A DNA stretch of 64,000 bases from a virus. Its lineage: Duplodnaviria; Caudoviricetes. The stretch covers positions 1 to 64,000 of IMG/VR virus record IMGVR_UViG_3300009424_000011; one strand, 5' to 3'. The notes under the pieces are model-generated. The model had not been told where the DNA came from, ran no database searches, and was given only the letters and a program-made list of their open reading frames with translations. This document shows, one piece after another, positions 6,323 through 12,082 of this stretch. The number at the start of each line of letters is the position of its first letter. Positions within the stretch are counted from its first letter, which is position 1. A program made the translations under genes and the position numbers.

Positions 6323-6398
6323 TGGTGGACCTTGTAGGGCTTGAACCTACCACCTTGCGGTTAAGAGCCGCCTGCTCTACCTACTGAGCTAAAGGTCC
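6323..6398 (-). tRNA. tRNA-Lys(CTT)
   Basis: Loop CTCTTAA; A73. Confidence 0.92.
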
Positions 6399-8212: not shown

Positions 8213-8323
8213 ATGCCGGGGACGAAATCAACAAGGCGCTCTAACCACCTGAGCTACACCGGAGCCTTGCCCCGGTGGCCGGATTCGAACCGGCGTCCTC
8301 CTCGTTCTACAACCGCCCCGCAT
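8213..8323 (-). ncRNA. Circularly permuted tRNA mimic (YrlA/Y-RNA-like)
   Basis: Order is T arm, loop-closed acceptor stem, D arm; the 5' and 3' ends pair in place of the anticodon arm. Confidence 0.7.
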
Positions 8324-8538: not shown

Positions 8539-8617
8539 TGGTCAGGCGGGCAGGATTCGAACCTGCGATCCCCTCCGTCCGAGGGAGGTAGGGACGGCCA
8601 GACTCCCCTACCGCCTG
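8539..8617 (-). tRNA. tRNA-Pro(CGG)
   Basis: Loop CTCGGAC; C1-G72; A73. Confidence 0.9.
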
Positions 8618-8629
8618 ATACTCTTGAAA

Positions 8630-8705
8630 TGGTCAGGATCGTAGGGCTCGAACCTACGGCCTTCCGGTCCCAAACCGGACGCTCTTCCAACTGAGCTAGA
8701 CCCTG
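8630..8705 (-). tRNA. tRNA-Pro(TGG)
   Basis: Loop TTTGGGA; C1-G72; A73. Confidence 0.9.
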
Positions 8706-8742
8706 AAACGAAATCGGGGGCCATGTTGCCATGGCCCCCGAT
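8705..8742 (-). terminator. Attenuator terminator, operon A
   Basis: ATCGGGGGCCATG-GCAA-CATGGCCCCCGAT followed by TTCGTTTC, abutting tRNA-Pro. Confidence 0.85.
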
Positions 8743-8771
8743 CGAGATAACTGCTTGGAGAGTGAAGTGGC

Positions 8772-8861
8772 CTAGCCACCAACCATCTGTTCGCACGCCA
8801 TCGCGACCGGGACCATAATGGCCGGTGCTGCTGGGTTATTCATGGCGACTACGTTGAACAT
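8772..8861 (-). CDS. Leader peptide A, MFNVVAMNNPAAPAIMVPVAMACEQMVGG
   Basis: AGGA upstream; 22 of 28 non-initiator codons are Asn/Val/Ala/Met/Pro/Ile, the downstream tRNA set. Confidence 0.88.
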   Translation of the reverse strand: MFNVVAMNNPAAPAIMVPVAMACEQMVGG

Positions 8862-8913
8862 GGTTGAACTCTGAAATCCTGTTTGGCCGGAACATCCCGG
8901 TCTTGATGATCGA

Positions 8914-8942
8914 AGTGTAACGACATCCGATTCGAATGTCAA
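8914..8942 (-). promoter_or_regulatory. sigma70 promoter of tRNA operon A
   Basis: TTGACA-17-TACACT; CGAATCG in the spacer. Confidence 0.88.
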
Positions 8943-9130
8943 CTAAAAAATTGCACTCACCCATTTTATCTGGTTTCGGAGCAGGGCGGCTCCTTTAACT
9001 CTCTGTCACCTGCTTGAGGATTCAAGGGGCTCCATGGAACCCACAGGAACTAAATGCGAGGATATTCGAACCACCCTTGGTTACCTACCGGGTCACCCCT
9101 GCGGACAGGGAAGTGAGAAAAACTCGAACA

Positions 9131-9488
9131 TCACTCGCAACAAGGAGAGCGGACTAAAGTTCGCGAATCATCCGTCCCGGTTTCCCGACGGTGCCCGCCT
9201 CCCTTGTTGCAAGTGAAACATCTGTGATCAGGCCGGCGGCCAAAGCACTAGCAACACCCATACACGGTTTTTATCCGGGTCTGTCGTCTCCGTTCGACGG
9301 GAGTCCACTCGCCTTAAACCTATCTGGTGCCGCCGGCCCGATCACAAATGGATCACTCGTAATGGGGCCTCTCGAAGCTCGGCCGGGTTCACTACGCCCT
9401 TCCTTCCGCCGGTTCAGTGTAAACCCACGGATCGCCGGTTAGGTCGCGTGACCGCCGACATTCCGCTGAGAAGCTTCATTACGAGTGA
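9131..9488 (-). ncRNA. Three abutting stem-closed ncRNA modules (9131-9216, 9219-9350, 9353-9488)
   Basis: Each is bounded by a roughly 17-22 bp terminal inverted repeat; 2-nt spacers between modules. Confidence 0.65.
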
Positions 9489-9495
9489 AGCGTTA

Positions 9496-9664
9496 TGGAG
9501 CCCGGAGGTGGAGTCGAACCACTGGCCTATCGTTCCACAGGAGATCAACCCTGCTTTCCGATCCACCGCGCCGCTTTCGAAGGCGACTTCACCTAAACAT
9601 CCCTGACCAACTCCCGACAACTTTCCATGGAAGCTACCAATCTGTTGTGGCGGTTACTCCGGGC
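9496..9664 (-). ncRNA. 169-nt tRNA-like RNA (acceptor plus T arm with a large insert)
   Basis: GCCCGGAG/CTCCGGGC followed by TCCA; T arm GTGG-TTCGACT-CCAC. Confidence 0.65.
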
Positions 9665-9667
9665 TAT

Positions 9668-9848
9668 CGTTTTCTATGATGACCCAGCGGGTTTGCAGCG
9701 ACGCCCAATGCGATCAAGCCACGGCTCGAATTACTGGACCTGATGCTTCGACGATCCGTCTGCATTCGAGAATTGCTGGGATCGACCTGACCTGCGGGAA
9801 CCGAGGGGAAGGTAGCTAACCTTCTTTGCTGGGCCAACATAGAAATCG
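9668..9848 (-). ncRNA. Stem-closed ncRNA module
   Basis: CGATTTCTATGTTGGCCCAGC pairs with GCTGGGTCATCATAGAAAACG. Confidence 0.6.
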
Positions 9849-9853
9849 AAAAA

Positions 9854-10200
9854 TGGAAGCAGGTTGAGATTACACCCGCTACGATCCGTCATTCGTCAGA
9901 TTATAGTGACCTTGCGAGTCACCTTCCCGACTTATCCACCAAGCCCCTTGCGGTAGCTCAGTTCCAGACCAACGCCGCCTTTTTCTCCCGGTTCTCACGG
10001 GACCGCTGGCATTTGCGGTGACACTGCATGATATTCGGCAGTTTCGATTCCGCTGACTGTCTCCAGCCATTAAGGGCTTGCGGGCCCAACGAAACTTCTT
10101 CCACCAACCAACCATCACCTTGCGAGATCAGGTCGGGCCACATTGAGGCAAGCCTCTATGGCATTAGGCGTCTTTCACATGCAGTCGTGGCAATCTTTGC
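9854..10200 (-). ncRNA. Large structured RNA, possibly GOLLD-like
   Basis: About 350 nt non-coding directly after a tRNA; five CGCAA(G) motifs consistent with GCAA tetraloops; 3' GGGTGTAATCTCAACC. Confidence 0.45.
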
Positions 10201-10203
10201 GTT

Positions 10204-10279
10204 TGGAGCAGACTGGTGGGTTTGAACCACCGATCTCACGATTAAGAGTCGTTTGCATTACCAACTATGCTAAGTTTGC
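10204..10279 (-). tRNA. Second tRNA(CTT), nominal Lys, with U73
   Basis: Loop CTCTTAA; cloverleaf; TCCA end. Confidence 0.8.
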
Positions 10280-10418
10280 AAGGTTATCCCGGTGAAGCGG
10301 TCCTCGCGGACCTGACTGCGCTTGCCTGAATTGACCGATCGGGACCGGCGGGGTTAAGTGGCCTTACCCCCTTTATGTGAGTTGCCTCACACTATCGCCA
10401 TCAGGCTGGCATTCCGTC

Positions 10419-10447
10419 TCTCTATTAGGTGATTCGATTCGTGTCAA
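10419..10447 (-). promoter_or_regulatory. Promoter of the ncRNA cluster, double GANTC
   Basis: TTGACA-CGAATCGAATCACCTAA-TAGAGA. Confidence 0.65.
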
Positions 10448-10459
10448 CACTTAATCAAA

Positions 10460-10692
10460 TCAACTCGTCGAGATATTCCATGACTTACCGCGTGACAGGA
10501 CCACTTGCGCTGGCTTGGCCTATCGTGCTGGGGGCCGGTGATCTCGGGGCTTCCCCCGTTCTACCCGCCCTTGACACGAAACGTATCCGCACCAGACCGG
10601 CCAATGACTCGCTCGCGCCCAAGTTCGACGCTGCGGGGTCAGAGTGACTCCGGCTGTTCCTGCCCCTCGGAAAACCATGGAGCAGACGTTGG
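10460..10692 (-). ncRNA. Putative ~230-nt ncRNA with paired ends
   Basis: Own promoter at 10699-10727 (TTGACA-17-TAATTC); TCCATGGTT/AGTCATGGA and GCAGGA/TCCTGT pairings; no convincing ORF. Confidence 0.5.
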
Positions 10693-10771
10693 AGGGCCGA
10701 ATTACCGATTCTCACTGTCAGTGTCAACATAAAAATGACAGTCAGTGAAAATTATTTGGCTCTCACTATAA

Positions 10772-10804
10772 GGAAAGGGCCGCCACCTTCGTGACGGCCC
10801 TTCC
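10772..10804 (-). terminator. Intrinsic terminator
   Basis: GGAAGGGCCGTCAC-GAAG-GTGGCGGCCCTTTCC. Confidence 0.6.
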
Positions 10805-11455: not shown

Positions 11456-12082
11456 TTAGAGTGCCATCACCATCGCAGATGCATCTTCGGTGAGTTCGAT
11501 ATACGCTTCGGTAGTTTCCATCCGAGCGTGACCCATCAACCGCTGAACGTCACGAAGTGAGCAGTGGTGAGCGTTAGCTGTTCGGGCAAGCTGGGTTCCA
11601 AAAGTTCGGCGACCCGAGTGAGTGGAAGCGCCTTCGAACCCGAACGACTTGAGCATCTTGAGATAGTAAGTCTTCAAGGCTTCCGGGGACATCTGCTTGA
11701 ACTCAGCATCTTTCGGGATCGGCCGGCCCCGTGCCAGAATCCAACGGAAGGGCTGCGAAGAAATCGCAACGAACTTGGCGTTGGGATATTCCTCGCGGAA
11801 CTCTTCCAGACAGGTTCTGATCAGGGGGTTCATCGGGATGTCACGCATCCGCTGCTTCTTACCAACATCGGAAAAGATGTTGATCTGCTTGGCGATAGCG
11901 CCATCGACATCGGTCATCGCGCTGATCTTGATCTTGGCGATCTCACCGACACGCAGCCCGGCCTTGAATGACAGAGCCACAATCAGCTTGTCACGCTTGG
12001 GCATGACGCTGTGGGTTTCGATGTGAGTAAGCAGCCGATAGAACTGCTTCTCATCGAAGGTCTTGGCACGCTTGATAGCCAT
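11456..12082 (-). CDS. Tyrosine recombinase (catalytic domain only)
   Basis: GLRVGEI, HSGRRTF and LMGH...TEAY motifs. Confidence 0.9.
   Translation of the reverse strand: MAIKRAKTFDEKQFYRLLTHIETHSVMPKRDKLIVALSFKAGLRVGEIAKIKISAMTDVDGAIAKQINIFSDVGKKQRMRDIPMNPLIRTCLEEFREEYPNAKFVAISSQPFRWILARGRPIPKDAEFKQMSPEALKTYYLKMLKSFGFEGASTHSGRRTFGTQLARTANAHHCSLRDVQRLMGHARMETTEAYIELTEDASAMVMAL

Follow-up and report, generated by a model that had tools for sequence, protein, structure and literature searches.

A GOLLD RNA with a putative internal deletion and a conserved train of structured RNA modules at the head of a phage stable-RNA island

Introduction

The question raised by the present locus is what a phage makes from 1.45 kb of DNA in which no credible coding sequence is found. 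The stretch (positions 8970-10415, minus strand) is the head of a stable-RNA island in a window of 64,000 nucleotides (nt), taken from the 96.8-kb IMG/VR virus record IMGVR_UViG_3300009424_000011 (estimated completeness 57%), whose nearest cultured relatives are the Erythrobacter phages XM05 and vB_EliS-L02 (~150 kb each). The island occupies the minus strand of the window and consists of three operons with 27 transfer RNA (tRNA) genes in all, together with a permuted transfer-messenger RNA of the alpha type (tmRNA, 2014-2445). In the original prediction, which was made from the letters of the window, the stretch was described as a polycistron of abutting, unknown structured RNAs. Here, the stretch is considered reasonably likely to be a composite, in which a truncated GOLLD RNA is followed by six autonomous modules that would be cut into small RNAs acting in trans.

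Comparisons and controls

Eleven distinct loci were compared, namely the window, XM05, L02, L004, L005, L006, L007, L008, L010, L014 and L015. Covariation was estimated by counting the pairs changed on both sides, with 500 shuffles and slid partner strands as the controls. Known families were searched for by a permissive Rfam scan of 8600-10800 (E up to 10). The RNA-library evidence consisted of assembled contigs from four runs (X18, X19, X20 and X21) of three studies.

Identification of the GOLLD RNA

The promoter-proximal ~550 nt of the stretch is a member of the GOLLD family, an RNA that reportedly goes back to Weinberg in 2009. A leader, a tRNA(CTT) and a ~350-nt GCAA-loop-rich RNA had been listed there among the unknown RNAs; the latter two are present as described, and all three proved to be parts of one known GOLLD RNA (Rfam RF02032), arranged as follows.

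10412-9861, minus strand: GOLLD RNA overall (Rfam RF02032 and relatives)
10283-10412, minus strand: what is left of the GOLLD 5' domain (its first ~120 nt, out of ~350 nt), followed by a few window-specific filler letters and then the tRNA
10204-10279, minus strand: tRNA-Lys(CUU) in the GOLLD variable linker J13/15 (ARAGORN; Rfam tRNA model, 60.3 bits)
9861-10203, minus strand: GOLLD 3' domain, conserved core, its helices numbered P14-P27 in the published scheme (Rfam match, sister loci and RNA contigs)

RF02032 was matched at 9861-10307 on the minus strand with 122.1 bits (E 3.9e-33, model positions 1-416), which falls under the curated gathering score of 150 bits for this family. The GOLLD scores of the sister loci run from 120 to 172 bits, with four above 150 (157, 159, 158 and 172) and one at 149, and the sub-cut-off score of the window is explained by the loss of the first model hairpin together with the block described below. 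Positions ~110-416 of the alignment have high posterior probability with few non-canonical pairs flagged, and the window RNA aligns end to end with the conserved 3' domain, including the multi-stem core, the long-range helix and the GNRA hairpins. Identity to the relatives over 9862-10207 is 77-92%. For the first three hairpins of the 5' remnant, two-sided changes are present in L02, as read by eye from the alignment.

The tRNA-Lys(CUU) falls within the unstructured linker of the model, so that the GOLLD match encloses it, and a tRNA for Lys, Glu, Arg or Ile stands at the equivalent place in the GOLLD RNA of each relative. The embedded tRNA is Lys-CUU in the window and XM05, Glu-UUC in L02, Arg-UCU in L007 and Ile-UAU in L008; a second tRNA-Lys(CUU) lies at 6323-6398 of the window. 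The Rfam model represents only the conserved 3' half of GOLLD, the env-38 RNA being divided into a 5' region (1-420) and a 3' region (421-833); the disordered linker sometimes contains a tRNA, and cages of 14 and 12 subunits were resolved by cryo-electron microscopy (PMC12286853; PMC12990946).

Deletion in the 5' domain of the window GOLLD

Eight sister loci carry ~299 extra nt at 10294|10282 that are missing from the window, as seen in alignment A2 (four relatives) and in pairwise comparisons (L007, L008 and L015). The missing block corresponds to ~230 nt of the 5' domain plus the first hairpin of the Rfam model, and the window retains ~120 nt of the variable 5' domain (P1-P13), as compared with ~350-420 nt typical of the family. 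A single faulty assembly does not account for the deleted form, because 98-100% of the sampled words of the stretch were recovered in 17 aquifer DNA runs. An RNA contig of run X21 (9887-10294, zero mismatches) enters the window-specific junction. The full-length form is represented in run X20, an oil-sands RNA library, by an 809-nt contig composed of 9886-10282, 299 other letters and 10288-10400. On these comparisons, the window GOLLD appears to have a natural internal deletion of ~300 nt.

The GOLLD 3' domain alone (P14-P27, 375 nt) is known to assemble still, mainly as a decamer and in vitro as 8- to 12-mer rings, whose cap is formed, and whose stoichiometry is set, by the 5' domain (PMC12990946). 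The remaining window GOLLD closely matches this published 3'-domain-only construct, and an uncapped GOLLD ring is probably made by the phage, because the 3' domain assembles by itself in the published work.

Structured modules M1 to M6

Behind GOLLD, after a gap of 8-12 nt in the window and L015, lies a train of abutting and self-contained structured RNAs on the minus strand, which had been predicted and is real and conserved. Its members are as follows.

9668-9848, minus strand: M1, 181 nt, 21-base-pair (bp) closing helix, conserved GCCCGCAGG and CGCUGCAAAC boxes (alignment A6, six homologues)
9496-9664, minus strand: M2, 169-nt tRNA-derived cloverleaf with covarying acceptor, T and D-like helices, also found as an RNA contig
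9350-9489, minus strand: M3, 136-140 nt, 18-bp closing helix (alignment A5, eleven homologues)
9219-9349, minus strand: M4, 131 nt, 24-bp closing helix (alignment A7, five homologues)
9131-9216, minus strand: M5, 86-nt hairpin module, 15-bp closing helix (four phages compared)
8971-9130, minus strand: M6, last segment (alignment A9 and nhmmer)

The minimum-free-energy fold of 8960-9862 splits exactly into these modules (z -5.4), where helix-closed units had been expected. The z values of single-module folding are -4.65 for M1, -5.5 for M3, -6.1 for M4, -6.25 for M5 and -1.3 for M2, and each module folds more stably, with more G-U pairs, as the minus-strand RNA. The spacers are AU-rich and measure 0-7 nt, in agreement with the 2-7 nt that had been claimed for the central modules. 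M1 to M6 matched no Rfam family, with only a chance hairpin (mir-1976) at M5 and noise, and no self-cleaving ribozyme was found in the scanned region; the novelty of the stretch was thus upheld for the modules and lost for its first third, which is GOLLD.

Covariation was strong in M1 and M3. In M1, 22 of 50 pairs change on both sides among the six homologues, which was reached by 0 of 500 shuffles, with 94% of positions paired versus 34-44% in the slid controls; the corresponding values of M3 among the eleven homologues are 15 of 27 pairs, 0 of 500 shuffles and 97% versus 32-53%. M3 folds into the closing helix, one variable hairpin and two hairpins with the invariant loops ACACUR and GUAGUGA, and its model R1 scored 120 bits on the minus strand versus 34 on the other. 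Both invariant loops are complementary to each other, and a kissing contact between them is possible. M4 varies little, with 4 pairs changed on both sides among the five homologues. The closing helix of M5 is invariant in four phages and the interior is replaced in L004 and L005; the helix carries CACU.G.AA / ..GAGUGAU arms in common with M3, and R1 gave 20-28 bits on M5 homologues. New families of structured RNA that are supported by covariation thus number at least four, namely M1 and M3 and, as described below, U1 and M2.

The 5' 95 nt of M6 is conserved and has a T-loop-like GGUUCGAAU hairpin, and its tail is variable and shorter than in the sister phages. A last segment ending in ACCA had been placed here; the segment exists as M6, but its ACCA is at 8974-8971 and not at 8970, no helix like an acceptor precedes it, and its homologue in XM05 is the sequence before the promoter. 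The sister trains end in a hairpin with a compensated stem and the loop AUGUAGUG, in which the GUAGUGA loop of M3 recurs; AAUUUUUUAG comes after it (L004:8880-8935, L008:2040-2100 and L002:4560-4640), and this hairpin is mostly lost in the window (8945-8975). The GNCGAA motif of YrlA occurs in M1 and M4 and was judged a chance occurrence, as it is not at the YrlA-defining position (PMC4201824).

M2 as an oversized tRNA look-alike

The description of 9496-9664 as a tRNA-like module was borne out. M2 has an acceptor of 8 bp, a D arm that is expanded and a further arm with the loop GUUGAUCN; its T stem of 4 bp carries a UUCGACU loop, U73 and CCA are encoded at the 3' end (UCCA), and the coaxial acceptor/T helix is of 12 bp. 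The acceptors of the five homologues are unrelated in sequence (GCCCGGAG, GCGCAGAG, GCGUGGGU, GGUUGGGA and GGGUGGGA), each pairs 8/8, and each is followed by the 4-bp T stem, the UUCGANU loop, U73 and CCA; in two homologues, a T stem of 5 bp with an acceptor of 7 bp is equally possible. The D-like, inner and T helices covary, the helix just past the acceptor does so in the manner of a D stem closing an expanded loop, and the third arm is a hairpin in which the 8-nt loop is conserved.

No 7-nt anticodon loop, no G3-U70 pair and no tag frame were found in M2, position 3-70 in the five homologues being C-G, G-C, G-C, U-A and G-C, respectively. M2 was called neither by ARAGORN nor by the Rfam tRNA and tmRNA models (E up to 10). 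A glycine-type acceptor identity was considered and rejected, as C2-G71, G3-C70 and U73 are present in only 2 of the 5 homologues.

A scan of IMG/VR for GGTTGATC followed by 18-30 nt and a T arm yielded 66 places, including 36 distinct ones that are not ordinary tRNAs. GUUGAUCN forms a hairpin loop (stem of 4-8 bp) in 12 of these 36, versus 1 of 25 ordinary tRNAs, and Rfam reads two of the places (L024:2080-2179 and L030:1158-1297) as tRNAs with a large insertion containing the GG-GUUGAUCN-CC hairpin. M2 may thus stand at the extreme of a broader class, that of phage tRNA-like RNAs with insertions. The GG-GUUGAUCN-CC hairpin was seen ~20 nt before the T arm in tRNA-like RNAs of the unrelated phage contigs L020, L024, L030, L033, L034, L038, L039, L045, L057, L061, L062 and L066. 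Another expanded tRNA look-alike, which was not called by ARAGORN either, lies between M3 and the permuted tmRNA at L010:2150-2345 (minus strand), with a 7-bp acceptor, a class-II-type D arm, a canonical T arm and ~75 nt where the anticodon arm and variable arm would be, and without CCA.

RNA-library contigs

GOLLD contigs covering 9877/9886-10257/10294 were obtained in four runs, and their ends fall at 9877-9887, before M1. M2 was recovered in run X19 as a stand-alone contig of exactly 159 nt (9502-9660) at a depth of 16, versus 6 for the GOLLD contig of that run, and nothing connects the two. Such discrete pieces, which match two predicted stable RNAs (GOLLD and M2), are not what DNA carry-over would give. 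For M2, the predicted separate processing is consistent with its appearance as a contig of its own and not within one long piece; the other modules are considered under Discussion. Pieces of tRNA-Pro in runs X18 and X19 were assigned to other organisms on account of mismatches and loose ends.

Exchange of modules between sister phages

The module content and order are mosaic across the 11 loci, as exemplified by the orders after GOLLD given below.

Window: M1, M2, M3, M4, M5, M6
L008: Mx, M1, M3, M2, M4, M5, M6
L015: M1, M3, M4, M2
XM05: M3, M2
L02: MH, M3, another unit, M1, M6-like tail

L005 additionally has MH and Mx, and these two are also closed by helices with compensatory changes. In L010, L014 and L006, M3 is located between a promoter and the permuted tmRNA, and in the genome of L010 (G004) M3 is 11 kb away from GOLLD; the modules are therefore assigned to the island and not to GOLLD. 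As part of the whole explanation, it is fairly probable that a clade-specific pool of at least 10 interchangeable modules is maintained between GOLLD and the first tRNA operon, or before the tmRNA.

MH (L005:7903-8042 and L002:3836-3968) contains an acceptor/T-arm minihelix (GCCGCUU ... AAGGCGGC UUCA) inside a near-perfect helix of ~20 bp, the sequence of which differs between L005 and L002 by compensation; its layout is Y-RNA-like, with no match to the YrlA model.

Promoters, limits and the upstream RNA U1

The features that bound the stretch, from upstream to downstream, are as follows.

10699-10727, minus strand: promoter-like site P0, TTGACA 10727-10722, 17-nt spacer, TAATTC 10704-10699, invariant in four phages
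10450-10695, minus strand: U1, non-coding structured RNA of ~245 nt upstream of GOLLD (covariation and RNA contig)
10419-10447, minus strand: promoter P1 of the GOLLD unit, TTGACA 10447-10442, identical in the window, L004, L005 and XM05
8914-8942, minus strand: promoter TTGACA-17-TACACT, heading the first tRNA operon (10/12 matches in the scan, kept in all relatives)

P1 had been proposed from the letters, and it stands: it is letter-identical in the four phages although its flanks vary, even though it was not called by the sigma-70 consensus scan, and the end of the X20 contig at 10400 is ~10 nt past the start predicted for P1. The proposed start of the transcription unit at 10447 had to be given up, as the conserved P0 and the structured U1 lie further upstream. 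P0 would work as a promoter, judging from its sequence, and a terminator-like hairpin (10801-10767) stands between it and the stop of a 193-aa open reading frame (ORF). The TTGACA of P0 is part of a palindrome without mismatch (CACTGAC.GTCA ... TGACACTGACAGTG), a possible operator, and a 30-38-nt piece of the U1/P0 block recurs at other island promoters in XM05 and L005.

An 81-aa ORF drawn over U1 is interrupted by stops in L004, L005 and XM05. Of the 108 predicted pairs of U1, compared in 4 sequences, 14 are changed on both sides, a number reached by 0 of 500 shuffles, and pairing is 97% versus 37-42% in the slid controls; no credible Rfam match to U1 was found in the scanned region. Contigs of run X18 cover 10516-10660, within U1, and 10288-10448, over P1 and the 5' remnant, and read-through from P0 into GOLLD is possible because of them. 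The promoter at 8914-8942 is the downstream limit of the module train, and no terminator was predicted within 8970-10415, including the part from GOLLD to M6.

The Pfam matches of ten neighbouring proteins were limited to a small recombinase of the tyrosine type and an SNF2 helicase, with nothing RNA-related. The recombinase, of the Phage_integrase family (11456-12082, minus strand, 208 aa, catalytic domain only), is ~1 kb upstream of the island and kept in all relatives.

Discussion

In the mechanism proposed for the composite of truncated GOLLD and autonomous modules, the modules would be transcribed on the minus strand along with the stable RNAs of the island and then cut into separate small RNAs. 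By analogy with the processing of tRNA operons, M2 would be matured like a tRNA, by RNase P at the 5' end and trimming to the encoded CCA. For the long-stem modules, release might be brought about by RNase E or RNase III of the host, either in the AU-rich spacers of 0-7 nt or in the closing helices; the latter measure 21 bp in M1, 18 bp in M3, 24 bp in M4 and 15 bp in M5, as compared with about two helix turns for an RNase III substrate, and are candidate cleavage sites on this basis. The likeliest role of the products would be that of stable RNAs which mimic tRNA or bind proteins and thereby affect, in trans, the host factors handling tRNA or other RNAs; a role as tRNA mimics, protein sponges or partners of GOLLD assembly is speculative.

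An elaboration of this mechanism, to which a low probability is given, holds that the train is a rapidly reshuffled library of tRNA-derived and helix-closed decoys (M2, M3 and related modules), which host tRNA enzymes would free and which would neutralise host defence or processing factors directed at tRNA or other RNA; or else that the modules form RNA-only assemblies beside the GOLLD ring through self-complementary loops, such as GAUC in M2 and ACACUA/UAGUG in M3. Were it true, the train would be an RNA-based accessory arsenal of the phage.

Several observations weigh against the composite of trans-acting modules. No RNA contig over M1 or M3-M6 was obtained in the four runs, which is not evidence of absence, and the contigs are limited to GOLLD, M2 and the upstream pieces; being assembled, they give no strand, true ends or levels, and those of X18 over the promoter and upstream DNA may come from read-through or from DNA carry-over. 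M2 is thermodynamically ordinary (z -1.3), and the helices of M4, M5 and M6 are too invariant for covariation. No gene for RNase III, Ro60/TROVE, RtcB or a CCA-adding enzyme was found in the 96.8-kb record, which is only an estimated 57% complete, so that their absence carries little weight. The module families are so far confined to one small clade of Erythrobacter-type phages: the M1 and M3 patterns gave zero matches in 185,579 bacterial genomes and, in IMG/VR and the JGI metagenomes, only this phage clade.

The same data have to be weighed under other explanations. If the modules were cis-acting scaffolds for processing or stability of a long precursor, insulating GOLLD and the tRNA operons from one another and from exonucleases and having no function in trans, the long and near-perfect closing helices, the very short spacers, the location between stable-RNA genes or between promoter and tmRNA, and the replaceable interior of M5 within its invariant closing helix would all be accounted for. 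This explanation is nevertheless thought unlikely: a mere clamp needs no fixed interior, whereas the loop and junction sequences within M1, M2 and M3 are invariant across divergent phages; M2 exists as an RNA species of its own, with a contig depth above that of GOLLD in run X19; and sister phages manage with very different sets, XM05 having only M3 and M2. The variable presence and order among close relatives, with M2 and M3 swapped in L008 and L015, could also be produced by selfish palindromic DNA elements that have settled in the RNA island, resembling miniature inverted-repeat transposable elements (MITEs) or integron cassettes, each unit being bounded by inverted repeats and perhaps moved by the Phage_integrase-family recombinase encoded ~1 kb upstream in all relatives (11456-12082). 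Such elements are quite improbable here, given that the modules are single-copy (no self-matches in the region and one M3 per genome except G002), that no boundary motif is shared (AGTGAT is not enriched, with 36 occurrences versus 31 expected, and GTGATC is enriched window-wide and not in the train), and that folding is strand-asymmetric, with numerous G-U pairs on one strand only; in addition, internal helices covary and not just the termini, and no target-site duplication was seen at the insertion point of M2.

The absence of a predicted terminator from GOLLD to M6, together with the 8-12-nt gap by which the modules abut GOLLD in the window and L015, would suit a single giant RNA of 1.45 kb, that is, an extended GOLLD with 3' tail domains replacing the lost 5' domain. 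Its probability is put very low, as L004, L005 and L008 combine full-length GOLLD with the same modules, terminator-like hairpins stand right behind GOLLD in XM05 and L004, the GOLLD contigs end at 9877-9887 in all four runs, which come from three studies, with the M2 contig separate from them, and M3 is 11 kb from GOLLD in G004. That the stretch encodes small proteins is scarcely credible. Several ORFs of 47-83 aa can be drawn, but every frame is broken by single-base indels and module swaps among close relatives (indels between the window and L004 fall inside the ORFs), the conserved positions are the paired positions, and the neighbouring 81-aa ORF has stops in three relatives; the claim that only short ORFs and no credible coding sequence are present was therefore retained.

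Under the composite of truncated GOLLD and trans-acting modules, the locus is of interest in several respects. GOLLD RNAs are among the largest RNAs of bacteria and phages, and three new handles are given by this phage lineage. A natural 3'-domain-only GOLLD in many aquifer samples and RNA libraries suggests that this phage, at least, can do without the capped cage. M2, with a perfect acceptor/T helix and CCA, no anticodon and an occurrence as RNA, is a candidate for a new class of tRNA mimics. The cassette-like exchange between close relatives is the pattern expected of accessory or arms-race functions, and M4-M6 travel with GOLLD, the tRNA operons and the tmRNA.

Comparison with known systems

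The modules differ from MITEs and integron cassettes in having no dispersed copies, self-matches or enriched boundary motif. RNase III processing stalks are found in rRNA operons and in T7 early RNA. Like them, the units of the train are predicted to be closed by 18-24-bp helices formed from both ends and to be separated by very short single-stranded spacers; unlike them, the modules have helices of invariant sequence, which enclose RNAs other than rRNA, tRNA or mRNA.

RNAC and RNAD are located in the tRNA gene cluster of T4. They are stable phage RNAs whose function has been unknown for decades (PMC9697503). The modules share with them the position next to tRNA genes and the production together with tRNAs, and differ in showing no likeness in sequence or structure and in comprising six or more units that are shuffled among close relatives.

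YrlA RNAs are tRNA mimics closed by a long stem and handled by tRNA enzymes, and the YrlA/Y RNAs resemble the modules as small stable RNAs among phage tRNAs, with a long terminal helix and T-arm-like elements (PMC4201824). The differences are that no match to the YrlA model was found in 8600-10800, that no TROVE/Ro60 gene was found in the 57%-complete record, and that the ends of M2 form an acceptor stem with CCA and not a Ro60-binding stem. Weak YrlA matches of 30-46 bits (cut-off 69) occur in the sister tRNA operons (L004:9568-9671, L005:9925-10025, L007:13792-13894 and L006:7962-8036) and correspond to a putative permuted tRNA mimic at 8213-8323 of the window.

With tRNA and the tRNA-like domain of tmRNA, M2 has in common the 12-bp coaxial acceptor/T helix, the T loop, the discriminator, CCA and the four-way cloverleaf; its D and anticodon arms differ in being swollen to ~65 and ~45 nt, respectively.

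The closest likeness to a known system is that of GOLLD itself. The window RNA shares the whole 3'-domain model, including the long-range helix, the GNRA-rich hairpins and the tRNA in J13/15, and it is likewise encoded by a phage, beside a tRNA array, and found in RNA libraries. It differs from the sister loci by the ~300 nt that made up most of the 5' cap domain and the first model hairpin, and in this respect it may be regarded as the parallel, arisen in evolution, of the truncated laboratory RNA by which open rings are formed.

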